A stretch of 64,000 nucleotides of DNA from Candidatus Spongiisociaceae bacterium (lineage in GTDB: Bacteria; Actinomycetota; Acidimicrobiia; Spongiisociales; Spongiisociaceae), in NCBI GenBank assembly GCA_965202665.1, contig OZ241841.1, forward strand, positions 96,001-160,000. Direction: 5' to 3'. The notes beneath the pieces are model-generated. The model was not told where the DNA came from and searched no databases. It was given only the letters and a program-made list of their open reading frames with translations. Of this stretch, positions 12,299 through 52,715 are shown one piece after another (within the stretch, counting starts at the first letter, position 1; each line of letters starts with the position of its first letter). The position numbers and the translations under genes are program-made.

Positions 12299-12347
12299 AA
12301 ACCCGGTATTTGCCCAGTCAGGCCCGATTCACAAATCCTACTGCAAA

Positions 12348-13003: not shown

Positions 13004-13065
13004 AATATCACGACTCTCCCTTATCCATCATTGCGTAGGACCAGCTGCGGGGCAGGTTAGGGGAC

Positions 13066-13284
13066 TCATATCGGCGCATCGGCGGGGTCATAATCCATGG
13101 GGCGGACCCGTTGGGCGCGCAGCCATTTCAGGACGAGGTCGCGGTGGAAGAGGCCCCGCCCATCCGCCTCGGCGTCCGCCAAATGCCCCTCCCCCGCCAG
13201 GCGGCGGGCCTCCTCGATGGAAATACCGAGGAGGTCCGCCACTCCGGGCAGGTCGAGGATAGGAGGGAACCGGGCATTTTTCAT
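13066..13284 (-). CDS. Excisionase/MerR-like helix-turn-helix DNA-binding protein (HTH_17-like)
   Basis: PPILDLPGVADLLGISIEEARRLAGEGHL...FHRDLVLKWL matches the Xis/BldC-like pattern; immediately downstream of the pilin. Confidence 0.7.
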   Translation of the reverse strand: MKNARFPPILDLPGVADLLGISIEEARRLAGEGHLADAEADGRGLFHRDLVLKWLRAQRVRPMDYDPADAPI

Positions 13285-13309
13285 TCCTACCCTCAAAAAC
13301 GGCGGGTTT

Positions 13310-13495
13310 TCAGAACCGCACCTTGTCCCGCAGCCAGCCGATAATGTCCGCCCCCAGGCTGTTGAACAGCGTCTGCAGGCCGAACACCACCATCACCCCC
13401 ACCGCAATCCAGGCGAAGATGGTGGAAGTCTCAGCCGCCCCCCGTTCGCTGCGCAATCGTTCCCACAGCGCGTGCAGAACCGCCATCATTTTCAT
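13310..13495 (-). CDS. Flp-type (type IVb/IVc) pilin
   Basis: Short basic leader ending RLRSERG followed by a hydrophobic helix; AAGGAG RBS; last structural gene of the tad cluster. Confidence 0.75.
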   Translation of the reverse strand: MKMMAVLHALWERLRSERGAAETSTIFAWIAVGVMVVFGLQTLFNSLGADIIGWLRDKVRF

Positions 13496-13556
13496 CGTCG
13501 TCTCCTTTGCTCTCGCTTGATTGAACGGGTTGTCCGTTACCGGCCGCAAGCACATG

Positions 13557-14510: not shown

Positions 14511-15406
14511 GACCCGCCGCCCTCCGCCCCGGCGGGAGGGGGGCCGGTCAGAACCCGCCGTTCGGCCTGCGGGCGGGACAGGCGGCGGACGATCAGCCAA
14601 CCGGCCAGCGACCAGGCCGCCCCGCCCGCCGCCACCAGAAAGCCGGTTCCGGTCCGGTAGAAAGCCTGATACTGGCTGGACGAGGCGGAGACGAACAGCA
14701 AAATCGCCCATGGGACGAGGGCCACCACCCGGCTTTCCATACGCTGTTCGGCCCCGTCGGCCCGCACCTCGGCTTCCAGCCGCAGGTCCTCGGTTATTTC
14801 CGCCGCCAGATCCCGCAACACGGAGCCGATCAACCCCCCGCCGTGGTGATGGGCCAAAATCAGCACTTCCATCACCCGGTCGGAAATCGGATCCCCCAAC
14901 TCTTCTTTCACCACTTCCAAAGCGGCCGCCGCCCCCATCATCCGGGACAGCGTCCCGAAGCGGGCGAACCGGGCCCGCAGCGGCTCCGGCCCCTGCTCGG
15001 CCAACTCCGCCAAGCCGTTGACCAGGGTGGCCCCGGAGGAAACGGCCGCCGTCAGGTCGCGCAAAGCGTCCGGCCAGGCCTCCCGCACCTCCCGCAGCCG
15101 TTCCCGGCGGCGGCGGGAATAGTAGGCCCGGGGAAACCAGGCCGCCGCCAAGGCGGGGACCGCCGCCAGCCACCAAGCGCCGCTCACGGTCAGGGCGGCT
15201 GCGAAGACCGCCGCCCCCACCGCCAGCGACCCGGCCGCGAACTGGAAGGGGGTGAGGTCGCTGCCCGCCTGCGCCAGCCACAGCCGCCGGTCAGAGGCCG
15301 GCCGGGGCCGCATCGGGCGCAACCGCACCTTGGGCAGCCCGCCGAAGGCGGTCGCCGCCGCCAGGTAGGCGGTCAGTCCGCTCAGCAGGACGGCGGCCGC
15401 CTTCAT
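14507..15406 (-). CDS. tadB: Tad pilus assembly platform protein TadB (T2SS F family)
   Basis: WPDALRDLTAAVSSG, GGGLIGSVLRDL; ATGA overlap with tadA. Confidence 0.87.
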   Translation of the reverse strand: MKAAAVLLSGLTAYLAAATAFGGLPKVRLRPMRPRPASDRRLWLAQAGSDLTPFQFAAGSLAVGAAVFAAALTVSGAWWLAAVPALAAAWFPRAYYSRRRRERLREVREAWPDALRDLTAAVSSGATLVNGLAELAEQGPEPLRARFARFGTLSRMMGAAAALEVVKEELGDPISDRVMEVLILAHHHGGGLIGSVLRDLAAEITEDLRLEAEVRADGAEQRMESRVVALVPWAILLFVSASSSQYQAFYRTGTGFLVAAGGAAWSLAGWLIVRRLSRPQAERRVLTGPPPAGAEGGGS

Positions 15407-16701
15407 CGGCCGGGACTCCACTCTCCGGCCATCACCCGGGCCAGTCCCACTCCGGGCGGCAACCCCCCTTCCAGCCGGGCCGCGGTTTCCGGCGGTGGCA
15501 ACTCCCCGGTCCATTCCAAGGCGGAATCCGGCTTTCCCCGGACGAACAGGGGCGCCACCGCAAACCCTTCCCCGCCCGGGGCGGCGGCCAGGCTGATGAT
15601 TTCCTGCACCCGGCGTTCGGGCGCGTCCCCCATGGGGCCGTCCGCGGTTCGACGCGCCCACCGACGCAGGTGAACCGTGAAATCGATGGAATCCCCGAAC
15701 ACCCTGGTGACTATGGATTCGGTGATGTTCTCCCCGGCCATCATCGCCGCGTTGACCAAGGCGGTGAGGGCGCGGCTGGCCGAATCGGCGTGGATGGTGC
15801 AGGCGAAGCCGCATCCGGCGTTGACCGCCCGGGTCAGTTCGAAGGCCTCCGCTCCCCGCACCTCCCCCACGCAGATCAGGTCGGGCCGTTGCGCCAGCAC
15901 CACCTTCACCAGGTCGCGCAACGCGTAGCGCCGGGTTCCGTCCAAGGCGGGCGGGCTGGCCTCGTAGTAACTGCCGTGCGCCAACGGAACATGCACTTCC
16001 CGCACCTCTTCGCACACCCGCACGCACCGGTCGGGGGGCAGGGCCCGCAGGTAGGCGCTCAGCATGGTGGTTTTCCCCGCCCCGGGCGGCCCGCTGAAGA
16101 TGAGGGTGTTGACCGACTGGGCCGCCGTCCACAGAAACGCGGCCGCCGCCCCGGACAGGGCCCCCTTCCCGGCCAGAAAACCCAGGTCGTAGTCTTTGAC
16201 CACGTATTTGCGGATGGTGACCGACAGCCGGTCCGCCACCGGGGGAATGACGGCCGTCAGGCGGGCGGAGCCGTCCAGCACCCGGGCCTGTTCGATGGGG
16301 TTGGAAGTGTCCAAGCGGCGGTTGGTTCCGGCCAGGATGCGGGACACTATCTGCAGGTTCTCCTCCTCGGAGGTGGGGGCGTTCAGCGGTTGCAGGCGCC
16401 CCGCCCCATCCAGGTAGGACACCCTCTCCCCTTCTATGAAAATTTCTTCGATGTCGGTGCGTTCCAACAGGGGGGTGAGCGGGCCGTATCCGGCCAGGGA
16501 GTCGAGCAGCCGGCCGGCCAACCCCCGCGGATCCCGCAGCGGGCGGTTTCCGTCCCCGGCGAAGGCCCGCCGCTGATAGTCGTCCACCAGCCGCTCCACC
16601 TCGGCCCGCACCCGGGCCGGGTCGGCGGCCGGGTCCATCCCCATTTCCCCGATCCGCTCCGCCGCCCGTCGCCGCAACAGGTCATAGGCCCCCAGGTTCA
16701 T
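15403..16701 (-). CDS. tadA: Tad/CpaF pilus assembly ATPase
   Basis: GYGPLTPLL, SVTIRKY, GPPGAGKTT, RPDLICVGEVRGAEA, TIHA. Confidence 0.93.
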   Translation of the reverse strand: MNLGAYDLLRRRAAERIGEMGMDPAADPARVRAEVERLVDDYQRRAFAGDGNRPLRDPRGLAGRLLDSLAGYGPLTPLLERTDIEEIFIEGERVSYLDGAGRLQPLNAPTSEEENLQIVSRILAGTNRRLDTSNPIEQARVLDGSARLTAVIPPVADRLSVTIRKYVVKDYDLGFLAGKGALSGAAAAFLWTAAQSVNTLIFSGPPGAGKTTMLSAYLRALPPDRCVRVCEEVREVHVPLAHGSYYEASPPALDGTRRYALRDLVKVVLAQRPDLICVGEVRGAEAFELTRAVNAGCGFACTIHADSASRALTALVNAAMMAGENITESIVTRVFGDSIDFTVHLRRWARRTADGPMGDAPERRVQEIISLAAAPGGEGFAVAPLFVRGKPDSALEWTGELPPPETAARLEGGLPPGVGLARVMAGEWSPGR

Positions 16702-17840
16702 AGGCCGGCCTCGATCATCTTCTGCCCCAGGCGGTGCACCGTTTTGCGAAAGGGCCCCCGGGGCACCGGCGTCCCGTTCCAAGCGGACCGGGCCCGGGCC
16801 GGGTCGGCGGGGAGCCAGGTGATGGAGGCGGGCCGGAAAGTCCGAGTCAGCTCATCGCTCAGCTGGGTCCGTTCAAAGGCCCCCGCCGGGGCGTTCTCAA
16901 ACAGGACGTGCAATCGGCCGGAGGTGAGCCGTTGCGCCTGGGAAATCCAGGATATGGCCCGTGACAGACCCACAGGAGTGGGTTCCGCCAGCAGGGCCAC
17001 CTCCCCCGCCAAGCGCAGGAGGGATCGGCTCACCTCGAACCGGCCGTCTCGAGAACCCAACCGGGAAAGGTCCTCGATGTAGGGGGAGATCTTGACCACC
17101 ACCCGGCCGAACCGTTGAGCGGCGGCGGTCACCAAATCCGCGATGTCCTCGGAGCGGATGGTTTCCCACTCCGACGCCTCCGGGATTCCCGTCATCAGGG
17201 TCACCCCGTCCGGGCCGGACAGCATGGAATCGTCGATGCTTCCCCGCAGTTGCACAAGTGAATCAAGGGCGGTCAACAGGTTGGGAACGATGGGCATGGA
17301 CAGCCGTTGCGCCAGGCAGGGGGACACCGTGTCGGCGTCCAACACCAGCACCTTCCAAACGGAGGCGAACGTCCCGCCCAAGGCCAGCGCCACATCCCCC
17401 GCCAGGTCCCCGCCCGCCACCGCCGTCACGCCGGGCGGGGAGGGGGTCATGATCTCCGGCGGGGCCGGGGCGGACTCGGTCCTGCGGGGCGAGACCAGCA
17501 ACGCCAGTTCCAACAGCGCGTTGGGACCGGCGTCGGCCTTCGCCACCGCGTCCACTTCGGCCACCGTTAGCCGCTCCCGCGCCGTTTCGCCGTGTTCCCC
17601 GTCGTATACGCCCACCACCCGCCGGCCCTGCTGGTGAATCTTTTCCACCAGCCGCGGGCTGAAGTAGCTGGTGATGTCGTCGATTATCAACACGTCGTAG
17701 TCCTGTTGGAGGGCGTCCTCCCCGGTGAGGGCCGTCCCTCCCAGGCGGGCGCCCCCGTAGTCGATGAGATGCCGGATCAGCTCCGCCGACCAGCCCCGCT
17801 GGGAGACGGTCACCGCAATCACGGTCTCGCCGTCCGTCAT
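16698..17840 (-). CDS. CpaE/TadZ-like receiver + MinD-like protein with a degenerate P-loop
   Basis: Receiver-like N-terminus (DVLIIDD), LVLDAD, AEPTPVGLSR; positioned between cpaB and tadA. Confidence 0.75.
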   Translation of the reverse strand: MTDGETVIAVTVSQRGWSAELIRHLIDYGGARLGGTALTGEDALQQDYDVLIIDDITSYFSPRLVEKIHQQGRRVVGVYDGEHGETARERLTVAEVDAVAKADAGPNALLELALLVSPRRTESAPAPPEIMTPSPPGVTAVAGGDLAGDVALALGGTFASVWKVLVLDADTVSPCLAQRLSMPIVPNLLTALDSLVQLRGSIDDSMLSGPDGVTLMTGIPEASEWETIRSEDIADLVTAAAQRFGRVVVKISPYIEDLSRLGSRDGRFEVSRSLLRLAGEVALLAEPTPVGLSRAISWISQAQRLTSGRLHVLFENAPAGAFERTQLSDELTRTFRPASITWLPADPARARSAWNGTPVPRGPFRKTVHRLGQKMIEAGL

Positions 17841-18592
17841 CTCCCCTCCTCCCCGTCGGAACCCTCCGCCTCCCATCCGGGATCGCCCGGCGCCGGGGGA
17901 GGGCGGAAGGTGAGTTCCTCCACCGGCGGGGCCCCGGTGGAGCGGACCAGAAAAACCTCGCCCGCCGCCAAAGCCGTAGCCACCGACAAGGCGTCGGTCC
18001 CGTCCACCGCCACGATCACGTTCAATTCGCCGCTTCCCAACCCTCCGCCCTCCTCCGCGATGGACAGCACTTCCACCCCCAACGCCGCGAACCGCCCCCC
18101 GCCCCGCTCCGCCGCCACCACATCCACCCGGTCGCCTGGCCGCAGGTCGGCCGCCACCGCCCGCCCGGGCGGAACGGGTATGCTCATCGCCCTTCCCGGG
18201 GCGGGGACTTGGGGGCGGAAGTCATCGGGAAACAGGGGAGCGCCGGCCTCCACATCGCGAATGAGGGCCGTATCCACCAGCCCGGCGGCCGCCTCGGGGG
18301 TGAGCGCCCGCCGGGACAAAGGACCGCCGGCTGCGATGCGGACTTGGTCCAAGTCCCGTTCCGCCAGCCGGGCCCCGGCCGGGAGGGAGCGGGCGGCCAC
18401 CGCCGCCGGAACGGTCTCGTCTTGGCCGCGCAGTATCAGCAAATTGAGCAACAAGGCGGACAACCCGGCCGCGATCATCACCATATGGCCGGCCGACAGC
18501 CGGGCGAAGAGCCGTCGTTGGGGAAAGGAGCCGGACCGACCTTCGCCGGTCCGCTCGGGGCCGCCGCCCTGGTTCATCGTTTTATCGCGCAT
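17837..18592 (-). CDS. SAF-domain Flp pilus assembly protein (CpaB/RcpC-like)
   Basis: TM helix, VAARSLPAGARL, RAMSIPV, LRPGDRVDVV; exact start uncertain (18604/18592/18577). Confidence 0.85.
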   Translation of the reverse strand: MRDKTMNQGGGPERTGEGRSGSFPQRRLFARLSAGHMVMIAAGLSALLLNLLILRGQDETVPAAVAARSLPAGARLAERDLDQVRIAAGGPLSRRALTPEAAAGLVDTALIRDVEAGAPLFPDDFRPQVPAPGRAMSIPVPPGRAVAADLRPGDRVDVVAAERGGGRFAALGVEVLSIAEEGGGLGSGELNVIVAVDGTDALSVATALAAGEVFLVRSTGAPPVEELTFRPPPAPGDPGWEAEGSDGEEGR

Positions 18593-32327: not shown

Positions 32328-33857
32328 CTAACGGGCGTAGTCGGTGACACGCACTTCCCGAATCACCGTCACCTGAATGTGATTGGAGTAGCGCAGGTCG
32401 TTTTCCATGCGGCGGGCCACCGAATGGGCCAGGTGGGCGGCGGCCAAGTCGTCCACCTCCCCCGGGTCCACCACTATCCTAACCTCCCGGCCGGCCTGCA
32501 TGGCGTACACTTGCTCCACCCCGCTGAACTCCCGCACCAGCGACTCTATTCTTTCCAGGCGGCGCATATAGGATTGCGCGGTGTTGTTGCGGGCCCCCGG
32601 ACGGGATGCGGACACGGTGTCGGCCGTCTGTACGATGATGGACAGCAAAGTTCGGGGCTCCACTTCGTTGTGGTGGGCTTCTATCCCGTGCACCACCGCC
32701 GGGTCCTCCCCGAAGCGGCGGGCTATCTCGGCTCCGATCAGCGCGTGGGAACCCTGCACTTCGTGGGTGACCGCCTTGCCGATGTCGTGCAAGAAGGCGG
32801 ACCTTTTCACATCGGCCGGGTCGATGCCCAGTTCGGCGGCCAGCATTCCGGCCAGGTGGGCGGATTCGATCAGATGGTTGAGCACGTTCTGCCCGTACGA
32901 GGTGCGGTATTTGAGGCGGCCCAGCAGGGTGATCAGTTCGGGGTGTATTTGGGAGGCCCCCGCTTCCAGCACCGCCCACTCCCCGGCGTCCCGCACCGAC
33001 TGCTCCACTTCCGTCTGGGCTTTCTCGTAGGACTCTTCGATGGAGGCGGGGTGGATTCGCCCGTCGGCCACCAGGTTCTCCAAAGCGAGGCGGGCGATTT
33101 CCCGGCGGACGGGATCGAAGGAGCTGACCATCACCATTTCCGGCGTGTCGTCCACCACCAAGTTGACCCCGGTTACCGACTCGAACGCCCGGATGTTGCG
33201 GCCTTCCCGGCCAATGATGCGGCCTTTCAGTTCATCGTTGGGCAAGGACACGGCGGAAACGGTGGTTTCGGCGGTGACCGGGGCGGCCAAGCGTTCGATG
33301 GCGGTGGTGAGTATGCGACGGGCCCGGCGGTCGGCTTCCTCCCGCACCCGCAGTTCGGTTTCCCGGACCATCAACATCCCCTCCCGGCGGGTTTCTTCCT
33401 TGATTTGCTTGAGCAGTTCCTCTTTGGCGGCGGCGGCGTCCATGAGGGAAATCCGCTCCAGGCGGGCCCGGGCGTCGTGGCCTATCCGTTCCGCTTCCGA
33501 ACGCAGGTCGTTCGCTTCGGCTTCCCGGCGGGCCGCCATCTGCTCCCGCAAAGCCAGGTTGGAGGCCCGTTGCTCCAGGGTCTGCTCCCGTTGCGCCAAC
33601 CGGTCCTCGGAGGACGCCAACTCCATCCGCCGCTGATCCATCTCCGTCTGTCCCCGCTCCAGGTACTCGTCCACCCGGGCCCGCCCCTCGTCCTCGGCGC
33701 GGTCCATCAAACGTTGCGCCCGCCGCCGGGCCGCCGCCCCCGGATCCTCCAGCACGTTCCTCCGCACGCGCCGCGCCGCCGCCAGCGCCCAAAGCGACAA
33801 CCCCAGTATCGCCCCGCACGCCCCGACCGCAATCACCGACGTAAGACTGACTTCCAT
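32328..33857 (-). CDS. rny: Ribonuclease Y
   Basis: N-terminal TM, coiled coil, KH domain (KGRIIGREGRNIR), HD domain (LHDIGKA), SRPGAR. Confidence 0.97.
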   Translation of the reverse strand: MEVSLTSVIAVGACGAILGLSLWALAAARRVRRNVLEDPGAAARRRAQRLMDRAEDEGRARVDEYLERGQTEMDQRRMELASSEDRLAQREQTLEQRASNLALREQMAARREAEANDLRSEAERIGHDARARLERISLMDAAAAKEELLKQIKEETRREGMLMVRETELRVREEADRRARRILTTAIERLAAPVTAETTVSAVSLPNDELKGRIIGREGRNIRAFESVTGVNLVVDDTPEMVMVSSFDPVRREIARLALENLVADGRIHPASIEESYEKAQTEVEQSVRDAGEWAVLEAGASQIHPELITLLGRLKYRTSYGQNVLNHLIESAHLAGMLAAELGIDPADVKRSAFLHDIGKAVTHEVQGSHALIGAEIARRFGEDPAVVHGIEAHHNEVEPRTLLSIIVQTADTVSASRPGARNNTAQSYMRRLERIESLVREFSGVEQVYAMQAGREVRIVVDPGEVDDLAAAHLAHSVARRMENDLRYSNHIQVTVIREVRVTDYAR

Positions 33858-33964
33858 TACCTTCCCAAGTTTGGTCACCGCCCCGGCCCTCCGACCAAAG
33901 CACCCCCATCCTAACAAAACCCATTACCAAATTGAAACCGCCTTAGGATAAGGAAAGGAACCAG

Positions 33965-34993
33965 CTAATCCTCCGACCAGGAGAAAGGCAAAGAAGGAGA
34001 CATTTCCGTTACGTTACCAAAACATAGTCCACTCTCAATCTGCGGAGGTGGACTTCTATCAAAAAGTTCGTATCTTACGGTAGGGTGGGGAGGTTTTATG
34101 TCAGGGATGCCTATACCTTCCAAAGTATCCTGGCCTTTATTTGCCTGACGTATTATGTTAGCTTTAGCCTGCATCATAGGAATAATATTCCTAGAATAAG
34201 ATTCATATATGTATTCCATAATAAGATCACCGACGGGGTGGTCTGTTGCAAAAATTAATGTATAAATTGGTATATTGTTATCTCTTATCCCTAGCGCATG
34301 TGTTTTCTTATATTGCAATATTGTCTCTAGCCTTTTTCGATATAATTTGATCAATTCTTTTCTCATATTACTTGCATCCAAAAGGCCACTACGACGACGC
34401 TGATATATTGAAACCCAGTCCTCTGTCCCGTATACGCTATTTACTAAATCAATACTACTCTTTCCTTTCGCAACTTCAGCACCTATAACACGAAGCAGTG
34501 CTGGTTCAGGAAATAGTATGAATAACTCAATTTTAGGCTTACCTCTATCTTTCCATTTAGCTAATTTCTCCAAAGTTGCCCATTTAACTTGAAGTCCACA
34601 AGGATCAAGAAAAGCAATTGTAGGTGCTGATCTGTTCTTTATATACTCTAAACCCATATCAATTGTATTATTACAGTCTCCAGGCAACACCTTCCAATCG
34701 CGAACATTGTGAGATACGCTCGTCTGAATTGATGATCTCAGGACTTCCGCTTTATCTCGCTTTTCGAATAATGCTACACGCGTGAAAGTCGGCTCGACAT
34801 TAAAAGCGATCTGCGGCGAGCCGGGGAAGTATCCTTCCTCGTCACGCCTTTTATTACGATATGACCCAGCAAACAGATCAAGATATATCCTATCGCGGGC
34901 ACTTTTGCTAGCAATTGCAAATGGCCTTAGGTAATCCCATAGAATATCTATCTTGGTCTCTGACCACCAAGACCAATCTCTTTGCTCTGGCAT
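33965..34993 (-). CDS. tcmP: Three-Cys-motif partner protein (TcmP family, SAM-methyltransferase-like fold)
   Basis: WSETKIDIL..YL, YLDLFAGS, GSPQIA, GDCN, AFLDP.G.QV.W..L, YTLIFAT; AT-rich; adjacent to DUF5131. Confidence 0.85.
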   Translation of the reverse strand: MPEQRDWSWWSETKIDILWDYLRPFAIASKSARDRIYLDLFAGSYRNKRRDEEGYFPGSPQIAFNVEPTFTRVALFEKRDKAEVLRSSIQTSVSHNVRDWKVLPGDCNNTIDMGLEYIKNRSAPTIAFLDPCGLQVKWATLEKLAKWKDRGKPKIELFILFPEPALLRVIGAEVAKGKSSIDLVNSVYGTEDWVSIYQRRRSGLLDASNMRKELIKLYRKRLETILQYKKTHALGIRDNNIPIYTLIFATDHPVGDLIMEYIYESYSRNIIPMMQAKANIIRQANKGQDTLEGIGIPDIKPPHPTVRYELFDRSPPPQIESGLCFGNVTEMSPSLPFSWSED

Positions 34994-34999
34994 ATATCG

Positions 35000-35746
35000 T
35001 CACAACTTCCTTGCCGGTGGCATTTCGTTGTGGGTTTGGCCTTGGAGGGTGCGGCCGCCGGATTTGGGGGTGCGGCCGCCCCATTGTTTAAAGAAAAAGG
35101 GGACTTGGGCGGTATCGCACTGGTCGCGTAGGTCAGTAGCCCACTCTCCTTGCATGGGGCGGGCGCCGGGGCCGCTCTCCCCGCCTACGATCATCCAGTG
35201 GATGCCGTCTAGGTCAAGATTGGGTAGCGGTCCCAGCAACGGTTCGGCGCTTATGAACCTTACGGCCGCGTCCACTGTCCGCAGGTGGTCGATTCTGAAT
35301 TTGTAGCGGGCGGTTTCCACGCTCACGCCCATCCACAGGTTGGGCGGCCACGCCAGTTTCTGACCGAACCGGGCCAGGCGTTGGGAACGTTTGGTTAGCA
35401 ACTGGTACTGATGTTGCGGCGTGTCGGCTATCACCTCGAACACCCGGCGTATGTAATCGTCGGGCACGTCCTTGTGGAACAGATCGCTCATGGAGTCCAC
35501 GAAGATGGTGCGGGGCTTGCGCCAGGAACGGGGAATATCCAATGCGTCGGGATGCAATGTCATTCCAAAACCGGGTCCGCTGGTGCGGGGGTCGCCGTCG
35601 TTACGATACTTTGCCACCCCCATCGCTTGCAATCGCTTGGCCAATGTGAGGGCGTAGCAGTTGTCGCATCCCGGCGAGGTGCGGTCGCAACCGGTGGTCG
35701 GATTCCACGTTGCTTCCGTCCATTCTATGGCGCTCCTGTCAGACAT
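35000..35746 (-). CDS. DUF5131 / phage Gp37-Gp68 family radical-SAM-like protein
   Basis: IEWTEATWNPTTGCDRTSPGCDNCYA (Cx6Cx2C), FVDSMSDLFH, LLTKR, SAEPLLG, VGGESG, FFFKQWGG. Confidence 0.93.
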   Translation of the reverse strand: MSDRSAIEWTEATWNPTTGCDRTSPGCDNCYALTLAKRLQAMGVAKYRNDGDPRTSGPGFGMTLHPDALDIPRSWRKPRTIFVDSMSDLFHKDVPDDYIRRVFEVIADTPQHQYQLLTKRSQRLARFGQKLAWPPNLWMGVSVETARYKFRIDHLRTVDAAVRFISAEPLLGPLPNLDLDGIHWMIVGGESGPGARPMQGEWATDLRDQCDTAQVPFFFKQWGGRTPKSGGRTLQGQTHNEMPPARKL

Positions 35747-36413
35747 TTTTCCCACTCCGCGCCCGCCCGCCATTAACTTCCAGGCCCCAGGCGCGCCAGC
35801 CTTCGACCTGTTGCCGGGCGAACAGCTCGATCTTCTTCTGTGCGGGAAACATTTGTTCGATGCGTTTGCGCACCTCGGCGGGTTTCTCCGAATGGGCGCC
35901 CCGTTTGTATCTCAAAAACTGGCGCACGTTGCGCGCCCCGCGCGGACTGGGAATTTTGCCGCGTTTGAAAACCAGGCACATCTCGCACTGGCTCATCGTG
36001 TAGAAGCCGGGGTTCACCCGTATCTTGTCCCACACGAATGCCACCGTCGCCCACGCAAAGCCCCATGTTTTGCCCAGGTCTATAGCCTGATCCAGGTGCG
36101 GGTTGGTGGCCCACATGAACAGCAGGCAGTCGTCCGCCGCGATGTCGGGCACGGCTAGGCCCTTCAAGTGGTCCAGCGTAACGGTCGGGTAGTGCCGCAT
36201 CGCTCCGCCCGTGTCCCGGTTGCCCGCTCCGGCATGTTGCAGTTGCCCTTTGTAATCCCAAGGCGGGTCGGCGTAGATGATGTCAAACTGGTCTTGCGGG
36301 AGAGCGGGGAAGCCGCCGGTGTCTCCGTTCCATATCTGGTCGAACTCGGCGCGGGTCAGTTGCCCGGGCTCCGCCTCCGTCGGCTGCAACGCCCCTTTAC
36401 CCGTGATGGTCAT
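35739..36413 (-). CDS. MT-A70 family amino-methyltransferase
   Basis: IIYADPPW, HYPTV, LFMWATNPHL, FVWDK, HSEKP, KIELFAR, WGLE. Confidence 0.92.
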   Translation of the reverse strand: MTITGKGALQPTEAEPGQLTRAEFDQIWNGDTGGFPALPQDQFDIIYADPPWDYKGQLQHAGAGNRDTGGAMRHYPTVTLDHLKGLAVPDIAADDCLLFMWATNPHLDQAIDLGKTWGFAWATVAFVWDKIRVNPGFYTMSQCEMCLVFKRGKIPSPRGARNVRQFLRYKRGAHSEKPAEVRKRIEQMFPAQKKIELFARQQVEGWRAWGLEVNGGRARSGKNV

Positions 36414-36500
36414 TTTGTCCCTCCGCTTTCGTCCGGGGCGCATCCGGCGTCGCCCCGGACGAAAGTCAGCATATATCCTCGGCTTGCCGCCAACCGGGGG

Positions 36501-41303: not shown

Positions 41304-42362
41304 TTAAATCTCGGAGAAGAAATAGCGGCGGATGACGTCCAGGCGGTGGTCGAATCCGTCGGGGTGCAGATACCAGAGGGTGGCGGCCACGGTGGACAGC
41401 ATCGGGTTGCCGTCCTGGGGGGTGAAGCAGAATCCGACCACCCGCCGCCCGTCGCGCACCGCCAGGGTTTCCACCGGCACCACCGTCTGGCTGAGAATGC
41501 GCCCGTAGTAGCCGTGGTCGCGCCCGAAGGAGAAGATGCGCCCCGCGGAACGTTTGTAGGTGAGCGCCACCCGGGGATTGGCGGCCAGTTTGTCAACGGC
41601 CCGCTCAACGGTTACGTCGTGGTCCAGCCGGATGTCGAAGTGGAGGGTGTGCATGTATTGGCTGTTTATTTTGAGAGCGGAGGAAAACAGGTCCAGGTCG
41701 TGGCCGAGCGTCTGAAAAAGATGATGGGCGTCGCGGGCGTGATGGGTGCCGAAGCGCTCCTCTTTGTGGGTTTCCACGGTGGGGCCGGGCACGAACCCCC
41801 TGTCCTGGCTGATGTCGTTGGCCCGCCTGATGCACAGGAAGGAGCCGTTGACGATGCGGGAGGAGCCGTCCGGGTCGAAACCGAGGGTTTTGAGGAGAAC
41901 GGCGATGTTGTGCGTGTTGCAGGACACGATGTGGATGAAGCGGTCCCGGTCGCGGTCCAGGGCTTGGTCGTTTATGCCCCGGGCGTACATTTTGCCGAAA
42001 CCGAATTCGGAGCCCTGGGCGAGGAAGCCCGCCACCTGGGGGGCGTTCACATAGTGGAGGGCCTTGTTTTCGTTGCCGGAGGGAGTGCAGTCGACGACCA
42101 CCGAGGCCCGCTCCAGGGCTTCCCGGGAGTCGTATTTGGGAGCGTGCCCCAGTTCCTCGAACCCCGCCCACCGGTCGGCGTCCACCGCCAGACGCGCCCC
42201 CCGTTGCACCAGGTCGTTGACCTTCCCCCGCTCGTCCAAAAGCGGCGTGCGCTTGTGAAAGGTAACCTCGTCGATCCCGAACGTCCGGTGGTGATCCGCC
42301 AGCAACCCGATCAGCGGCTCCCCGATGGTCCCGGTCCCGACAATGTGAACAATGTTTCCCAT
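41304..42362 (-). CDS. Archaeal-type (class II) glyceraldehyde-3-phosphate dehydrogenase-like protein
   Basis: VGTGTIG Rossmann start, VVDCTP, QGSE, IVSCNTH (catalytic Cys), RRAND, THHARD, YMH: the motif order of class II GAPDH. Confidence 0.75.
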   Translation of the reverse strand: MGNIVHIVGTGTIGEPLIGLLADHHRTFGIDEVTFHKRTPLLDERGKVNDLVQRGARLAVDADRWAGFEELGHAPKYDSREALERASVVVDCTPSGNENKALHYVNAPQVAGFLAQGSEFGFGKMYARGINDQALDRDRDRFIHIVSCNTHNIAVLLKTLGFDPDGSSRIVNGSFLCIRRANDISQDRGFVPGPTVETHKEERFGTHHARDAHHLFQTLGHDLDLFSSALKINSQYMHTLHFDIRLDHDVTVERAVDKLAANPRVALTYKRSAGRIFSFGRDHGYYGRILSQTVVPVETLAVRDGRRVVGFCFTPQDGNPMLSTVAATLWYLHPDGFDHRLDVIRRYFFSEI

Positions 42363-42501: not shown

Positions 42502-43719
42502 ATGGATGGCAAAAGGTTCATCCGAACCATCCGCTTGGAGAACATCCTTTCCTACGGTCCGGACAGGACCGAGTTAGAACTGCAACCGTTGAATGTACTG
42601 ATTGGCCCCAACGCCTCCGGCAAATCCAATCTGATCGAGGCTCTGTCGCTACTTGAATCCGCTCCTGGCAATCTGCAAAGGCCCATAGAAATGGGAGGTG
42701 GTATTAGAGAATGGTTATGGAAAGGACAGGACGATTTACCTATTGCTACGATAGAAGTTACCGTAGAACATCCCAACCAACTTTCGGATATTCGATATAA
42801 ACTATCATTTTCAGAGACAAATCTGGGAGGTTTTAAATTGCAAGACGAAACAATAGAAGGAACAAAAAACAAAAATAAAAACGGAGAACCACCCTTTTAT
42901 TATCAATACAATGAAGGCAAATCAGTGCTTTATTCTAAAGATATTTCAAAAAAATCAAAATGGAAGCAAAGGAGTTTGGAAATAGATTTAAGTTTCGAAC
43001 AATCCATTCTATCTCAGTTTCGTGACCCGGTGGTGTTTCCAGAGCTTGATTACTTGAGTGATCAATTTAAAAGTATATGGTTTTACCGTGAATGGGACCT
43101 TGGACACTATAAACCACCCCGTATCCCTCTACCAATTGATTTTCCCGTATCCTATCTATTCGAAGATGCTTCTAATCTTAGTTTAGTTTTAAGTACTCTA
43201 TTAAAAAACCCTGAACTAAAAGAAAAAATTATTAATTATATGAAGATTTTTTATCCAAATAGCACCGATATCGGTTTTGAAGTAAAAAGTGGAGGTGTTC
43301 TCATGCACTTACATGAACGAGGTCTGAGACATCGAGTTCCGGCGACTAGATTATCAGATGGAACTCTACGCTTTCTCTGCTTACTAACTATCTTATTGCA
43401 TCCTGATCCACCATCCATAATCTGTATAGAAGAACCAGAAGGCGGCTTACATCCGGATATTATTCCGGAAGTAGGAAAACTGCTAGTTGATGCATCATCT
43501 CGTAGTCAGATTATTGTTACCACTCATTCCGATATTCTAGTTGATGCCTTATCCGATTTTCCAGAATCGATTATCGTCTGCGAAAAACCCGAAATATCTA
43601 CTCAATTGCAACGATTAGATCGAGAAGAAATCGAAAAGTGGCTCAGCGCATACCGTGGAAAAGAAAACCAACTTGGAACAATGTGGACAAATGGAGAAAT
43701 AGGGGGAAACCGATGGTAA
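42502..43719 (+). CDS. ABC/AAA_21-type ATPase
   Basis: NVLIGPNASGKSN Walker A, LSDGTLR signature, IEEPEGGLHP Walker B/D-loop, QIIVTTHS; AT-rich. Confidence 0.92.
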   Translation: MDGKRFIRTIRLENILSYGPDRTELELQPLNVLIGPNASGKSNLIEALSLLESAPGNLQRPIEMGGGIREWLWKGQDDLPIATIEVTVEHPNQLSDIRYKLSFSETNLGGFKLQDETIEGTKNKNKNGEPPFYYQYNEGKSVLYSKDISKKSKWKQRSLEIDLSFEQSILSQFRDPVVFPELDYLSDQFKSIWFYREWDLGHYKPPRIPLPIDFPVSYLFEDASNLSLVLSTLLKNPELKEKIINYMKIFYPNSTDIGFEVKSGGVLMHLHERGLRHRVPATRLSDGTLRFLCLLTILLHPDPPSIICIEEPEGGLHPDIIPEVGKLLVDASSRSQIIVTTHSDILVDALSDFPESIIVCEKPEISTQLQRLDREEIEKWLSAYRGKENQLGTMWTNGEIGGNRW

Positions 43720-44312
43720 ATCGAATTATATGTATCGAGGGTGGAGGCCAGGGTAAGGGAGCGAGCATCGCTCACCGTAAAGGCTTTGTATCTTTTGTAA
43801 AGAGGGCTGGTTTGCAAGGAAAAATGCCCAAAATTGTACTCTGTGGTAGTCGCTACAAAGCGTACAGTAAGTTCAAAAAGGAGAGTGAGTATAGTCAAGA
43901 TGTTATACTCCTCGTTGATGCTGAGGCAACAGTTGCTACTAACCAACCGTGGGAACACCTTAAGAAAGAAGATGGGTGGGAACGCCCTGATGGTACTACC
44001 GACGAGCAATGTCATCTTATGGTTCAAATTATGGAATCCTGGTTTCTGGCGGACAAGCAAGCACTAGCAAAATATTACGGACGCCAGTTTAATAGGAGTG
44101 CACTTCCAAAAAATCAAAATATTGAAGAAATTTCTAAAGTAGATGTAGAAGAAGGATTAAAGCAAGCAACTAAAAAAACTCAAAAAGGTGAATACAGTAA
44201 GGGATCACACAGTTTTAAGATTTTAGCACTATTAGATCCTGAAAAAGTACGAAAGGCCTCCCCATATGCAGACCGCTTTATCAAAACATTGTTAGGGCAA
44301 AGCAATGCCTGA
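43713..44312 (+). CDS. DUF4276-family (TOPRIM-like) protein
   Basis: [39 protein letters not shown]; overlaps both the ATPase stop and the hsdM start. Confidence 0.82.
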
Positions 44313-45884
44313 TAGCGGAGCTACTATCGGGTATGAGGCTGAGCTTTGGGATATGGCGAACAGTCTGCGAGGGAGTATAGATGCCGCTGAGTATAAGCAT
44401 GTGGTGCTGGGATTGATTTTTCTCAAGTATGTGTCGGACGCATTTGAGGAACTACGCAAACAGTTGCTAAAGGAGCCCGAGGCGGACCCAGAAGATCCGG
44501 AAGAATACATCGCTCAGCGGGTGTTCTGGGTGTCGCCTGCGGCACGATGGGAACTTTTACAGGGCGAGGCCAAACAATCTGACATCGGCCAGCTGGTGGA
44601 TAGAGCGATGGATGCCATCGAACGGTACAACCCCGCTCTCAAAGGCGTACTACCCAAGGAATATGCTCGGCAATCCCTAGAACCAAAAAGTCTTGGCCAG
44701 CTGATTGACATGATTAGCAACATCAAAGTGGGAGATAAAGAATCCCGTTCCAAAGACGTACTAGGCCGCATTTACGAGTACTTTCTGTCACAATTTGCCG
44801 GGGCTGAAGGCAAAAAAGGTGGCGAGTTCTACACCCCGCGTTGTGTGGTGAAACTGCTAGTGGAAATGATCGAACCCTACCAAGGCCAAGTGTATGATCC
44901 CTGTTGCGGCTCCTCAGGTATGTTCGTGCAATCAAAAGAATTTATTGAAGCACATGCTACTGGCAACGGGAACGGTGGTTTCCAAACTCAGCACCTGACA
45001 CTCCAATCTATGGGCAAGAATCCAACTATACCACCTGGAGAATGGCCAAAATGAATCTGGCGATTAGAGGCATCGACTCTTCTCAAATCTTTCATGGAAA
45101 TACTTTTCACGACGATAAACACCCAGACCTAAAAGCCGATTATATACTTGCCAACCCTCCATTCAATATCTCTGAGTGGGGTGGTAAAAGTTTAAAGGAT
45201 GATCCACGCTGGAAATTCGCCCCCCCCCCCCCTAAAAATGCGAATTTTGCTTGGGTCCAACACATTATACACCATCTCAGCCCAAACGGCGTAGCCGGAT
45301 TTGTTCTCGCTAATGGATCAATGACATCTCGACAAAATAACGAGGGGGAAATCCGAAAAAAGATAATAGAAGAAAGATTAGTTGATTGTATGGTTGCTCT
45401 CCCAGGGCAACTTTTTTATTCCACTCAAATTCCGGCTTGCCTTTGGTTTATTGCACGCAACAGGGCAAATGGAAAATTCAGAAATAGAATAAACGAGATA
45501 TTATTTATCAGTGCTAGCAAAATGGGACAAATGGTTAGCCGAACTCATCGAGAACTAACAAACGAAGAAATAAAACAAATAGCAAAGACATATCATGCTT
45601 GGCGTGGAGAAAATTATATAGATGAATATAATGATATACCAGGATTTTGCAAGAGTGCTACCATAGAAGAGGTACGTCAATACGATTATATGCTAACCCC
45701 TGGCAGGTATGTTGGAGTAGAGTTACAAAGAGAAGATGATGAAATCTTTGAAGACAAAATGTCGCGATTATCAACACAGTGGTTTCAATCTAGTAGAGAG
45801 GCGAAGGAGATAGACCAACTTATATCATCCAATCTGGGAAAACTAGGTTTTACTTCTAGACAGGAAAATGAGGATCCGCTATGA
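44305..45884 (+). pseudogene. hsdM: Type I R-M methyltransferase HsdM, split by a frameshift (ORFs 44305-45054 and 45042-45884)
   Basis: [19 protein letters not shown] and [10 protein letters not shown] in the first frame; [17 protein letters not shown] and LTPGRY in the -1 frame; shift between ~44975 and 45006. Confidence 0.85.
45220..45232. repeat. C13 homopolymer tract inside hsdM
   Basis: ttcg-CCCCCCCCCCCCC-taaaaat, in frame as A-P-P-P-P, within otherwise AT-rich DNA. Confidence 0.9.
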
Positions 45885-47206
45885 TAAACGAAAATTGGAT
45901 AAAGACCACTTTAGGCGAATGCGCGATTATAAACGAACGCACATATCGTCCAAGCGAGCAATGGCCGTTTGTCAACTACCTTGAGACTGGTCAAATAACC
46001 GATAATAGAATTTCTGGTATCCACCATTTTGATGCCAGCAAAGACAAAATACCATCCCGTGCTCGCCGAAAAGTACGGCCGGGCGATATCGTTTATTCCA
46101 CGGTCATAGCAAATAAAAATAATTTCGGCATCATCAAAAAGGTATTTGACAACTTCTTAGTTTCCACTGCTTTTGCCGTAATACGCGGAAAGCCATACAT
46201 AGCAGACACACCATATATTTACTATTATATTACTCAAAAAAATATAAGAAATTACTTTCATACGTTAGCCCAGCAAAGCTCGTCAGTAATACCTGCATTA
46301 CAAATTAGAGACCTTGAGGAACTGCAAATACCACTGCCCCCAATCGAACAACAACAATCTATCATTCATATTCTGGAAACTTTTGACAACAAAATACACT
46401 TGAATCAGCAAATGAACAGAACTTTGGAGGAGATATCTAGGGCATTGTTTAAATCGTGGTTTGTTGATTTTGATCCAGTTCGGGCTAAAATGGACGGTAG
46501 CTGGCAACCCGACCAATCACTCCCCGGTTTACCCGCAGAACTCTACGATCTCTTCCCCGATCGCCTTTTACCCTCTAAACTGGGTGAGCAACCAGAGGGA
46601 TGGGATATAGTAACAATAGGAGATATATCAACCATTGTCGGCGGTGCTACACCCAGTACTAGCCAACACATTTTTTGGGAAGACGGCCACCATCCCTGGG
46701 TCACCCCCAAAGATGTCTCTGCGCTTTCTACTCCAGTTCTCCTGACAACCTCTCGTAAAATAACTGATGCTGGATTAGAATGTATAAGTTCAGGACTTTT
46801 ACCTCAAGGTACAGTACTAATGTCTTCGAGAGCTCCAATAGGATATTTAGCTATAACTGAAATACCTTTAGCTATCAATCAAGGATTCATTGCCATATTA
46901 CCTAACAAAAATATATCAAACTTATTTTTTCTTTACTGGTGTGAATATAATATATCGCATATAATTAATTATGCCAACGGTTCTACGTTTCTTGAAATAA
47001 ATAAGAGAAATTTTAGGAACATTAATCTATCATTACCTATACGACCTATCTTAAAAATTTACGATGAAATAGTAAGAAATTTATATGAACAAATGAAGTC
47101 AAATGAAATAGAAAATATACTCCTCGTAAACATGCGCGATGCTCTTTTGCCGAAATTGTTGTCGGGGGAAATTCGGGTTGAGGATTTGGAAGGGGTTTTG
47201 GGATGA
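45881..47206 (+). CDS. hsdS: Type I R-M specificity subunit
   Basis: Two TRDs and conserved regions ([33 protein letters not shown]); ATGA overlaps at both ends. Confidence 0.95.
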
Positions 47207-50200
47207 CGTCTTTAGGTATTGACGAATCGGTGGTTCAGCAACAGGCTTTGGAACTGCTGGAGGGTCTGGGATGGGATATCGGGGGGGCTTTGCCTGGGCC
47301 GGACAGCCTCTATTCGGAGCGGAGCGGGTACGATCAGGTGGTGTTGGAAGGCCGGTTGCGACAGGCTATCGCCCGACTCAACCCGGACTTGCCGGCGGCG
47401 GCGCGAGAGGATGCCCTGCGCCGTGTAACCCGGCCGGAAGGGTCGTCTTTGGAACACCGTAACCGTCATTTTCATCAGATGTTGGTCAACGGCGTTACGG
47501 TGGAATACCGCTCCTCCGACGATGGCATTCGGGGGGCGCAGGCCCGAATCATCGACTTCGGCCGTCCGGAAAACAACGACTGGCTGGCGTTCTCCGAATT
47601 CATCGTCCGGGAAGGAAACCATCAGCGGCGGGCTGACATCGTCCTGTTCGTCAACGGCCTGCCGCTGGGCGTCGTCGAATTCAAAAATCCGTTGGACGAG
47701 GACGCCACCATCTGGACCGCTTGGAGCCAACTCCAAACCTACAAAAACGAACTTCCCGCCCTGTTCTCCATGAACGAGCTGTTGATCCTGTCCGACGGGC
47801 TGGAGGCGCGGGTGGGGACGCTCACCTCCGGGCGGGAATGGTTCAAACCGTGGCGCATCTTCCCCGACCCTGAATCCGATGACCGCTCCGGCCCATCGCA
47901 CGGGTTGCAACTGGAAACGATGTTCGACGGCGTCCTCCACCACGACCGGTTCCTGTCCCTGATACGCGATTTCATCGTCTTCGAAGGCCGGGAAGGCGAA
48001 CGCCCGGTCAAGAAAATGGCCGGATACCACCAGTTCCACGCGGTGCGGACGGCGGTGGAGGAAACCCGGCGGGCCGCCCTGATGCGGGACGCTCCCCCGC
48101 CCGAACCGGATCGGAAGCCGGGCGGCGAACCGGGCGACCGGCGCATCGGAGTGGTGTGGCACACCCAGGGAGCGGGCAAAAGCCTGACCATGCTCTTCTA
48201 CGCCGGGCGGATCATCCGCGAACCGGACATGGGCAACCCGACCATCGTCGTCCTGAGCGACCGCAACGACTTGGACGACCAGCTGTTCGGCGTCTTCGCC
48301 CGATGCCAAGAATTGCTCCGCCAGCCGCCCGCCCAAGCCGAAAGCCGAGCCGACCTGCGCCGCAAACTGGAGGTGGAAGCGGGCGGGGTGGTGTTCACCA
48401 CCATCCAGAAATTTTTCCCCGATGAGAAAGGCGACCGGCATCCGATCCTGTCGGAGCGGCGCAACATCGTGGTCATCGCCGACGAAGCCCACCGCAGCCA
48501 ATACGATTTCATCGACGGCTACGCCCGCCATATGCGCGACGCCCTCCCGCATGCTTCCTTCGTCGGCTTCACCGGAACGCCCGTCGAGAAACAGGACGCC
48601 AACACCCGGGCCGTGTTCGGCGACTACATCAGCATCTACGACATCAAACGTTCCGTGGACGACCGGGCCACCGTCCCAATTTTCTACGAAAGCCGCCTGG
48701 CCTGTCTGTCCCTGGATGAAGAACATAGGCCGGTCATCGACGAAACCTTTGAGGAGGTGACCGAAGGGGAGGAAACGGAACGGAAGGACAAACTGAAACA
48801 CAAGTGGGCGCAACTGGAGGCGGTGGTCGGGGCTGAAGAGCGGTTGCGGGCGGTGGCCGAAGACATCGTCGTCCATTTTGAGAACCGGCTGGAAGCCTTG
48901 GACGGCAAAGCGATGGTGGTGTGCATGAGCAGGCGCATCTGCGTCGACCTGTTCCGGGAAATCACGCGCCTCCGGCCCGACTGGGGCGATCCCGCCGACG
49001 ACCGGGGGCGGATAAAAATCGTGATGACCGGGGCCGCTTCCGACCCGGCCGACTGGCAACGGCACATCCGCAACAAAACCCGCCGGGAGGCTTTGGCCAA
49101 CCGTTTCCGAGACCCGGACGACCCGTTGCGGATGGTTCTGGTGCGGGATATGTGGCTGACCGGGTTCGACGCCCCCAGCTTGCACACCATGTATTTGGAC
49201 AAGCCGATGCGGGGGCACGGGCTGATGCAGGCCATCGCCCGGGTCAACCGGGTTTTTAAAGACAAACCGGGCGGGCTGGTCGTGGACTATCTGGGCATAG
49301 CGCATGAACTGAAAGAGGCGTTGGCCGTCTACTCCGACAGCGGCGGGCGGGGCGATGTGGCGCCGGACCAGAAACAGGCCCGGGATCTCCTGCAAGAAAA
49401 ATACGAGGTGTGCCTTGGGCTGTTCCACGGGTTCGACTGGTCGGGTTGGACTGAGGGGGGCAACATGGAGCGGTTGCGGATATTGCCGGCCGCTTTTGAG
49501 CACATCTTGGCGCAACCGGACGGCAAAGACCGGTTCGTGCGAGCGGTGCGGGAAACATCGCAGGCTTTCGCCCTGGCCGTGCCCCATCCTTACACGGCGG
49601 AAATACGGGACGACGTAGCGTTTTTCCAGGCGGTGCGGGCCAGCCTGATGAAACGCACCGCGAGCGAAGGCAAGCCGGAGGAAACCTTGGATCAGGCGGT
49701 GCGGCAAATACTGTCCCTGGCGGTGGTGTCGGAAGGCGTGATGGACGTGTTCGCCGCCGCTGGCTTGGACAAACCCGACATTTCGGTCCTCTCCGATGAG
49801 TTCCTAGCCGAAGTGCGGGACATGCCCCGCCGCCACCTGGCCGTGGAAGCGTTGCAACGTCTGCTGAGGGGGGAGGTGCGAAACCGGCGGGGCCGGAACG
49901 TGGTGCAAGGGGAAATGTTCTCGCAAATGTTGGAGGACGCCATCCGCCGCTACCAGAACCGTTCCATAGAAGCGGCGCAGGTGATCGAGGAACTGATCGA
50001 ACTAGCCCGGGAAATGCGGGCCGCCAACGAACGGGGCGAGCAACTGGGGCTGAGCGAAGAAGAGACGGCCTTCTACGACGCGTTGGAAACCAACGACAGC
50101 GCGGTGCAGGTGATGGGGGACGCGGTGCTGTGCCAAATAGCACGGGAACTGGTGGAAACGGTGCGCGCCAACGCCAAAATCGACTGGACCCGCCGGGAGG

Positions 50201-50334
50201 ATGTCCGCGCCCAACTGCGGGTGGCCGTCAAACGACTGCTCCGCAGACATGGCTACCCGCCTGACAAGCAGGAGAAGGCCACCAACACCGTAATCAAGCA
50301 AGCGGAAGCCCTAACCACCACCTGGCTCACCTAA
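47203..50334 (+). CDS. hsdR: Type I R-M restriction subunit
   Basis: [17 protein letters not shown] nuclease motif, [35 protein letters not shown]. Confidence 0.97.
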
Positions 50335-50391
50335 CCCCGCCCGTATGCTACACTATGCCTTCTAGGCTATACGCTTACCTAGAAAGGAAGA

Positions 50392-51012
50392 GTGCCAATG
50401 TTGCCTCCCAACCCGAATGAGATCTTTGGAACCAAAGATGTTATTCAGGAACTGAAAACGAAACTCATCAACGAGTTACGCAAGGTTCGCAATCCTGTCA
50501 GCTTCAACAGTGTTGATTCCTACGTAAAGGAGTTTTCAGTAGAGATTCCCGTCTTAAGGAAACATCAAACAAAGATTGGGGTTGATAAAGCATTCCCTGC
50601 TGGGGCTGAATATTTTAGTAGAAATTGTAGTCCATATACTATGATACCCGGAAAAGAGTTCATTCTCGTTATACCTTTTATAGGAGATGCTAGAGTGTTT
50701 TATCATATGCCTTCCTCCTGGCTTGTCTCTGGTCGACAAGAAGGAGATATAGAAAATAATAGATTGGTTATAAAGTTCGGGGTATTGACTTATGGGCTGG
50801 CAAATCCTAAAAAAGATATTCCAAATAATGTCAATAAACGGAGGCAAGATATTATAGATCGTATTGAAAGGTGGTACGAGTTAGTTAAAAAAGATTTTAT
50901 TAACTGGAACAACAACTTGAATAGTTTTGTTGAATCTCAGATTGTTGCGAGAAAGAAAGAAATTGAAATAGAGGCCGAAATAAATATAGCTATCAATAAT
51001 AGTTTAGATTGA
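50392..51012 (+). CDS. Hypothetical AT-rich protein downstream of hsdR
   Basis: 206-aa ORF with an AAAGGAAG RBS; beta-rich middle (IPFIGDARVF..PS) and coiled-coil C-terminus. Confidence 0.7.
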   Translation: MPMLPPNPNEIFGTKDVIQELKTKLINELRKVRNPVSFNSVDSYVKEFSVEIPVLRKHQTKIGVDKAFPAGAEYFSRNCSPYTMIPGKEFILVIPFIGDARVFYHMPSSWLVSGRQEGDIENNRLVIKFGVLTYGLANPKKDIPNNVNKRRQDIIDRIERWYELVKKDFINWNNNLNSFVESQIVARKKEIEIEAEINIAINNSLD

Positions 51013-51929: not shown

Positions 51930-52206
51930 ATTAGCCTCCTTGTTTCGGGGACATTAGATTGCCGTTCGACTCCGGTCAGCATAGCGGTATTCCCTTTTGC
52001 CCGGTGTTTGGCGGGCTGGCCGACCGCATACGGGGTGCGGGGGAGCAGGGTGTTCCCCAACAGGCAGGAATGAAGCCCTGTGCTATCAGGGTCCGTTTCA
52101 TCGTTGCTTCCCCTCCTCGGCTCCCCCGCGGAGGAACATTGCGTGGGACACATCCTTTCATTTCCTCGCCACCGCCGCGGCGGACGCCAGGTCGGCGGCC
52201 AACCCA

Positions 52207-52661
52207 TAATGTGGGTGATGCTTTTTTGGTGGAAGTTGTTGAGGGCGCGGGCGGTGAACGCGGCGACGGTGGTTCCTTTCTCGTCCGGCAACGGTTCGGA
52301 GTAGGCAAGGCGGGTGTAGTCGTCCACTATAGAGTGCACAAAGGTCCATCCCGCTCCCCGGCGGGAGCGTTGCCCCGGCCGCGTATCTTCCATCCCCGCC
52401 GGGGGGGTATGGAAGCAAGATTCTTAACGTCCATATGCAGCAACTCCCCCATCCTGTCCCGTTCATACCGTATCACCCTCTCAGGGCGGGTTTTGAGAGG
52501 CTCGCCGGTCGAACGGGCCGCATCCCCAAAGACACGGCACCCCATGACGGCGGAGGATGCGGCTGATCGTCCGCTCCGGCACCCCCGTAAACACCGACAA
52601 CCGACCCGGCCCCGCCCACAACGCCCGCCGCACCCGCAACACCTGTTCCTCCACCGCCGGG
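52207..52661 (-). mobile_element. IS481-family transposase relic (frameshifted central fragment)
   Basis: RTISRILRRHG, RYERDRMGELLHMDVK, FVHSIVDDYTRLAYSE and FTARALNNF spread over different frames; no IS ends recognised. Confidence 0.85.
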
Positions 52662-52715
52662 CTGATGGTACGTATGGCACCCTGCCAGATTCCCAGTCGT
52701 TGGCGTGATTGGTGC

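Follow-up and report, generated by a model that had tools for sequence, protein, structure and literature searches.

The window analysed here, a stretch of 64,000 nucleotides (nt) from a Candidatus Spongiisociaceae bacterium (contig OZ241841.1, positions 96,001 to 160,000 of the forward strand), contains a type I restriction-modification (R-M) operon whose first two genes encode an ABC ATPase and a DUF4276 protein. Our analysis identified this pair as a member of HEC-01, a catalogued family of candidate anti-phage systems, and the locus does not represent a new system. The gene order, family, fold and conserved catalytic residues of the pair, the linkage between its A and B genes and its mostly stand-alone occurrence are documented. 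Because it mostly occurs alone, because A and B are tightly linked and because it survives beside a broken hsdM gene, we are inclined, if only slightly, to regard the pair as an autonomous HEC-01 cassette that acts as a self-contained backup nuclease and does not need the Hsd proteins. The best reading of the hsd operon is that of a preferred cargo slot without a subunit relationship to the pair.

The gene for the ABC (OLD-type) ATPase (42502..43719, + strand, 405 aa) matches Pfam AAA_21 (E 4.9e-38) and, over the full length, the PADLOC model HEC-01A (PDLC04177, 508 bits). It is followed by the gene for a TOPRIM-like predicted nuclease (43713..44312, ATG at 43713, + strand, 199 aa), which matches Pfam DUF4276 (E 4.6e-23) and, again at full length, HEC-01B (PDLC04201, 261 bits). 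The two HEC-01 models were by far the best among 5027 PADLOC models, and the weaker scores of the ATPase were 133 bits for AriA, 87 for AbiLi and 70 for mad3. A previous sequence-only reading of this DNA, made without database searches, had taken the pair as not yet catalogued; PADLOC already names it HEC-01, and DUF4276 has been published as a TOPRIM family and Mad4 homologue. HEC-01 is the Hma-embedded candidate 01, described as an ABC ATPase with a TOPRIM protein (PADLOC-DB 2.0; Payne et al., bioRxiv 10.1101/2024.01.29.577857). The window pair resembles it in having two genes, full-length best matches to A and B and the tendency to embed in defence operons, but it heads a type I hsd operon, whereas the catalogued HEC-01 lies in Hma. 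The window's DUF4276 is matched by 1921 clusters at 50% identity.

All motifs of the ATPase are intact (Walker A G35-S42, signature R283-G287, Walker B E310-E313, H342), and the ABC motif columns are invariant across 39 aligned homologues. The DUF4276 protein contains the motifs IEGGG, LLVDAE and MESWFLAD, which the previous reading had rightly picked out, and an acidic cluster of E9, D69-x-E71, E108 and D114 in addition to K163; in an alignment of 40 homologues, E9, G10, D69, E108 and D114 do not vary in any row. A single-sequence model of this protein was unusable (pLDDT, the predicted score of the local distance difference test, 39) and was rebuilt with a 40-row alignment, which gave a pLDDT of 93.9. 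Among 48,161 chains, the best folds were 6nk8 (BpOLD; Z 9.7, root-mean-square deviation 3.9, 169 residues aligned), AriB 8v46 (Z 8.6), 6p74 (TsOLD; Z 8.1) and GajA (Z 7.2), i.e. four OLD-family TOPRIM defence nucleases, all with moderate Z values. The DUF4276 protein is thus predicted to adopt an OLD-type TOPRIM fold, in line with the ABC ATPase-TOPRIM pair proposed from the sequence. A Foldseek search of the model against the PDB returned nothing at E<=0.001, with OLD and AriB chains top-ranked, and a sequence-profile search of the PDB with DUF4276 gave no match; the MAD3-MAD4 entries did not surface. A complex prediction of two ATPases with one DUF4276 protein scored 0.00, but its controls were not folded and it was counted neither way.

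Downstream of the pair follow hsdM in two parts (44305..45054, 249 aa, and 45042..45884, 280 aa), hsdS (45881..47206) and hsdR (47203..50334), all on the + strand. The ATPase and DUF4276 genes overlap by 7 nt, DUF4276 and hsdM by 8 nt, and the hsdM/hsdS and hsdS/hsdR junctions are ATGA overlaps, which confirms the row of five overlapping genes described in the previous reading together with its coordinates. It is solely from these overlaps that we take the cistrons to be co-transcribed; the promoter scan listed no sigma-70-like + strand site upstream of the ATPase. The hsdS gene encodes two target-recognition domains (Methylase_S in two stretches), and hsdR, which has an open frame and belongs to the HindI-like subfamily (T1RH-like_C), is supported by Pfam and by TIGR00348 (568 bits, above the cut-off). 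The guanine-cytosine (GC) content is 0.40 for the ATPase, 0.41 for DUF4276, 0.51 and 0.40 for the 5' and 3' parts of hsdM and 0.39 for hsdS, versus 0.63 for hsdR. The contrast between a host-like hsdR (genome 0.64) and an AT-richer remainder had been recognised correctly.

The treatment of hsdM as a single cistron, in contrast, overlooked a 1-nt frameshift near 44990, where the 5' part leaves the frame and stops. This part carries HsdM_N, the S-adenosylmethionine-binding motif I and N6_Mtase positions 2-76; the 3' part carries the catalytic NPPF motif and N6_Mtase positions 92-310 (E 1.1e-70). A productive split HsdM is unlikely, as judged from N6_Mtase positions 77-91, which are absent from both open reading frames (ORFs). 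The same break is present in contigs of the runs X1 (depth 153), X2 (54) and X3 (3.9), whereas a contig of X4 (depth 8.4, labelled sponge metagenome) has one extra base near 44990 that brings hsdM into frame there. We considered a sequencing error, which would be compatible with the low depth of X3 and with X1 and X2, possibly the source of the assembly itself; the site lies outside long homopolymers, however, and the break recurs in contigs of two studies (X1/X2 and X3). HsdM is required for modification and restriction alike. Since hsdM is split, the restriction system as assembled is most likely inactive next to an intact pair. Compared with a type I HindI-like system, which has intact hsdM, hsdS and hsdR genes, the locus is defective in hsdM and has open hsdS and hsdR frames.

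The 3' part of hsdM contains a C13 homopolymer (45220..45232, + strand; the frame is kept at 13) that is missing from this position in all six aligned hsdM homologues. Its length is C13 in X1 and C14 in both X2, which is from the same sample as X1, and X3, a comparison in which the library types of the runs are unknown and a homopolymer error is possible. The C and G run lengths of the genome are bimodal, with 96 runs of 8, one of 9, none of 10 and 75 of at least 11, and the hsdM tract belongs to this last, genome-wide class. In G001, hsdM is out of frame owing to an independent G11 run located about 70 nt beyond the position of the C13 tract. Phase-variable type I methyltransferases are known (PMC12707154), and the run-length pattern suggests that the C13 tract is likely a slipped-strand ON/OFF switch.

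Comparable tracts were found elsewhere. In the second type I system of the same genome (L066:8409, L066:9046), a C12 run divides hsdS into two ORFs and is closely preceded by a C11 run; this system is likely also phase-variable. C or G runs of 10-15 lie within or just after hsdM in type I loci of relatives (L175, L177, L178, L184, L185, L056), and the run interrupts hsdM in L185 and L056; regulation of type I R-M by slippage may be characteristic of the host family. At 24 sites on G000:C1 outside the window, a promoter-like motif is repeated in which a spacer of 15-17 nt with a G11-13 run separates TTGACA from a -10-like hexamer (e.g. 7174, 486774-514331 and 1013917-1028638), likely a family of slippage-switched promoters. 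Relative to the window, the contigs of X8 and X4 carry dense patches of differences in the 3' end of hsdM and the 5' domain of hsdS (45509-45936 and 46093-46198), and X4 shows a cluster of 16 listed differing sites in the latter; these patches likely reflect allele exchange inside the population.

The genomic context of homologous pairs was compared in pooled genome, metagenome and sampled-genome loci that were scanned with profiles from our own hsdM, hsdS and hsdR sequences. A total of 107 adjacent pairs collapsed to 97 at 95% identity, and 69 of them have at least 3 kb of flank on each side, a set that leaves out broken or cut-gene pairs (including the hsd-linked L002), distant DUF4276 clades and short-flank loci. 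An hsdM or hsdR gene lies within 3 kb of 9 of the 69 pairs, versus 60 without, and of 5 of the 59 pairs outside the host family. Both counts are enriched over a background assumed to be 2% (binomial 1e-5 and 0.008, respectively, with kin that are not independent), and the R-M link of the HEC-01 pair is real and loose. The enrichment near type I hsd genes that had been expected from the sequence thus stands with respect to the background, but it does not describe the 60 pairs located elsewhere. The two genes themselves are closely associated, with the ATPase directly upstream of DUF4276 in 43 of 44 genome loci. Among the neighbours of the first 44 loci (234 ORFs, Pfam), those with matches are mostly housekeeping genes; two pairs adjoin a BREX-type DUF6079 gene, and others adjoin methyltransferase, JAB, Fic or Schlafen genes.

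Two trees, the second of which was built on 42 of the 97 rows, place the window pair in a starred six-member clade of the host family. Four of the six members are hsd-linked and the sister, L061, is stand-alone. L061, the second copy of G004, is the nearest relative and lacks hsd genes within 5.4 kb. On the trees, the label 'linked to this hsd subfamily' requires five changes, at least three of which are forced by starred branches. The spread of the pair is patchy (8 of 28 genomes of the family versus 1 of 300 class-wide), and G004 and G009 have two copies each. The genome of the window itself harbors two more HEC-01A-like ATPases away from hsd genes (L067:5020-6887, L068:5106-6263), one of which is paired with a 203-aa protein without a family match.

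The view from the hsd genes revealed a preference for one subfamily. In 29 genomes of the host family, we took the best 38 of 75 HSDR_N matches, and 12 of these 38 type I loci belong to the HindI-like subfamily of the window. A HEC-01A-like ATPase is present in 8 of these 12 loci versus 0 of the remaining 26 type I loci, at least five of which are cut by contig ends and among which the ATPase profile misses distant forms such as NsnB of Menshen; the Fisher value of 1e-5 is overstated because kin are not independent. The ATPase clade of the window precedes hsdM in G000, G001, G004 and G009, and a second clade is located between hsdS and hsdR in G008, G012, G015 and G020. Five of the eight ATPase-carrying loci have the DUF4276 partner and three have lost it, and four of the 12 subfamily loci are without such an ATPase. 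The operon slot of the pair varies across loci, i.e. before hsdM, between hsdM and hsdS or after hsdR. The same hsd subfamily also holds the pair in Nitrospirales (L002, L003), G775 and G1653. Two or three recruitments followed by shared descent or block transfer may account for this distribution. The literature searched, with subscription papers outside its reach, contained no report of a HEC-01 preference for an hsd subfamily; this preference is the only result here beyond the HEC-01 catalogue entry. In the two Nitrospirales loci (7060-18100), HEC-01 and a GmrSD_N gene lie between hsdM and hsdS; an AAA_15 gene and an NsnC match come next in L002, forming a Menshen-like set, and the DUF4276 gene of L002 has an internal stop.

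The relatives document how the pair fares beside changing hsd genes. A genome of the same genus harbors at the same site an ATPase allele of 47% identity and another hsdS 5' half versus an hsdR of 82% identity, which is indicative of the modular exchange already proposed from the composition of the locus. The arrangement is retained in G004 and G009 at 51-53% protein identity, and in G009 two intact pairs surround an hsdM that is broken twice. The second G009 pair (L058:4347-6592) is located directly after hsdR and followed by tiny hsdM and hsdR relics, apparently as the sole survivor of a collapsed second island. In G001, by contrast, DUF4276 is lost and the ATPase lacks its signature, Walker B and H-loop residues; this nuclease loss with ATPase decay fits a costly nuclease and points toward the idea of a guard, while the decay of an ATPase deprived of its partner also counts for the linked A-B cassette.

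By the membership criteria of the known systems, the pair lies outside PARIS, MADS and PrrC-type guards. It shares with PARIS the ABC ATPase and a separate TOPRIM protein, with AriB as second-best fold match, but its effector is a 199-aa DUF4276 protein, whereas AriB is a DUF4435 protein of about 305 aa. AriB is not among the 15 PADLOC matches at E<=0.01, Pfam gives DUF4276 only, and the AriA match mirrors the generic AAA_21 match with the same span and the same score. The PARIS study lists MADS3-4 and AbiL among the ABC-TOPRIM systems (PMC11464382), and the Menshen study assigns DUF4276 to TOPRIM and names Mad4 as its homologue. MAD3-MAD4 is described as a 2:2 complex with Mg/Mn-dependent DNase activity that introduces nicks into plasmid DNA and linearises it; toxicity requires the expression of both proteins (PMC13662399). 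In MADS, mad3 and mad4 are required for defence, cells survive without mad5 only if mad2 or mad3 is missing as well, and the published model makes mad6, mad7 and mad8 mandatory. The locus resembles MADS (PMC13662399; bioRxiv 10.1101/2023.03.30.534895) in a separate ABC ATPase and a DUF4276-related TOPRIM protein of similar sizes (about 50 and 25 kDa for MAD3 and MAD4) in one operon with HsdM-like and HsdS-like genes; it differs in its normal hsdR, in the absence of mad6-8 matches among its seven ORFs from 42502 to 51012 and in its housekeeping flanks.

One alternative is an accessory arm of the MADS kind, in which the ATPase and the TOPRIM protein work only with the HsdM2S of the HindI-like subfamily and supply a further nuclease directed at DNA that is unmethylated or mimic-blocked. 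The ATPase count of 8/12 versus 0/26, the forced label changes, which imply repeated recruitment or loss, and the homology of DUF4276 with Mad4 all speak for it; a methylase-dependent arm would moreover tolerate the loss of hsdM, as the conditional lethality of mad5 illustrates, and the phage test of HEC-01 used an R-M-deleted host. We nevertheless regard it as unlikely given the 60 pairs away from hsd genes, the four subfamily loci without the ATPase and three more without DUF4276, the unfixed operon slot, a score of 85.6 bits against the NCBIfam MAD3 equivalog with its cut-off of 420 and the lack of a match to the mad4 model. The guard of the PrrC type, where an intact Hsd complex masks the pair and its inhibition or loss frees the nuclease, is the stronger form of the guard of this R-M system that the sequence-only reading considered possible. 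Like PrrC, and like RloA/RloB in other type I loci, the pair is an ABC-ATPase-based cargo inside a type I R-M operon. PrrC is a single protein with a HEPN RNase; the window pair, however, comprises two proteins whose homologues mostly lack hsd genes. The precedent of PrrC in EcoprrI, which becomes active upon inhibition of its Hsd complex (PMC12707154), the translational coupling into hsdM, the arrangement kept in G004 and G009 despite their divergence and the loss of the nuclease gene in G001 with its out-of-frame hsdM fit such a guard. Obligate location in an intact type I system is nevertheless contradicted by the 60 of 69 pairs away from hsd and by the broken hsdM, and intact pairs beside broken hsdM genes (window and X1-X3; G009) argue against it, as does the variable tract, unless the second type I system of the genome masks the pair in trans; this guard appears highly improbable.

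A further alternative is that the pair is not anti-phage at all and represents a selfish, addiction-type cassette or a plasmid-only defence that gathers in tolerant sites such as hsd operons. The negative phage screen, the patchy spread in the family versus the class, the duplicate copies in G004 and G009 and the repeated loss of the nuclease gene are compatible with this scenario, but the characterised ABC-TOPRIM relatives (OLD, Gabija, PARIS, HEC-04, MADS3-4) are defence modules as far as described, and copies reside within BREX-like and R-M loci; we consider it quite doubtful. In favour of the autonomous backup, BREX loci have been reported to contain OLD-ABC/TOPRIM modules with the role of backup effectors (PMC12839542).

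Several observations weigh against the autonomous cassette. The pair accompanies the same hsd subfamily in three other phyla (L002, L003, L120, L154), and the preference for this subfamily exceeds what a generic hotspot predicts. One HEC-01 representative in E. coli MG1655 dRM reportedly gave no protection against the phages tried (bioRxiv 10.1101/2024.01.29.577857). The hsdM break of the window may be recent, as hsdM is intact in X4, and both the trigger and the substrate of the presumed nuclease are borrowed from its relatives by analogy alone.

The autonomous cassette could operate as follows. By analogy with MAD3-MAD4, PARIS and OLD, an ATPase dimer would bind and control the TOPRIM subunit, in a 2:2 stoichiometry in the case of MAD3-MAD4. 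The trigger may come from a phage or plasmid, with an anti-restriction protein the most plausible candidate; nucleic acid would then be cleaved at the metal-dependent site of the TOPRIM protein, with double-stranded DNA (as for MAD4) a likelier target than transfer RNA (as for AriB), and cleavage would arrest the cell. Through its position in the operon, the pair would be expressed and transferred together with a restriction system that the host likely switches off by slippage.

HEC-01 is widespread and its function undemonstrated, and the current locus provides a measured preference for one hsd subfamily. This preference points to a missing control, since the published test host was R-M-deleted. 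Guard models are constrained by natural strains in which hsdM is either in frame or out of frame while the pair stays unchanged. A bolder and rather unlikely scenario is that HEC-01 is an R-M-dependent second nuclease, repeatedly recruited to one HindI-like subfamily, which protects the cell from anti-restriction proteins or while slippage keeps hsdM OFF, the published negative coming only from a host without R-M. If true, HEC-01 would link MADS with ordinary type I systems.

The island is bounded by a housekeeping gene (41304-42362) and ftsK, and the same two genes bracket a variable stretch in relatives. Downstream of hsdR, an AT-rich ORF (50392..51012, + strand, GC 0.37) has a partial match to the defence candidate PDC-S54 (PADLOC PDLC05036, E 4e-18, profile positions 43-195 of 410) and is additional island cargo. 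No RNA holder for the locus was among the matches listed, and a weak search of viral contigs with a single 7-residue pattern gave seven matches, none of them confirmed. The right edge of the island is marked by an IS (insertion sequence)-like repeat element (52200-52670) with at least eight copies elsewhere in the genome at 83-86% identity. A second AT-rich dip of the window (about 33500-35500, GC 0.40) adjoins a methyltransferase ORF (35739-36443) that we presume to be MT-A70-like from its DPPW motif.

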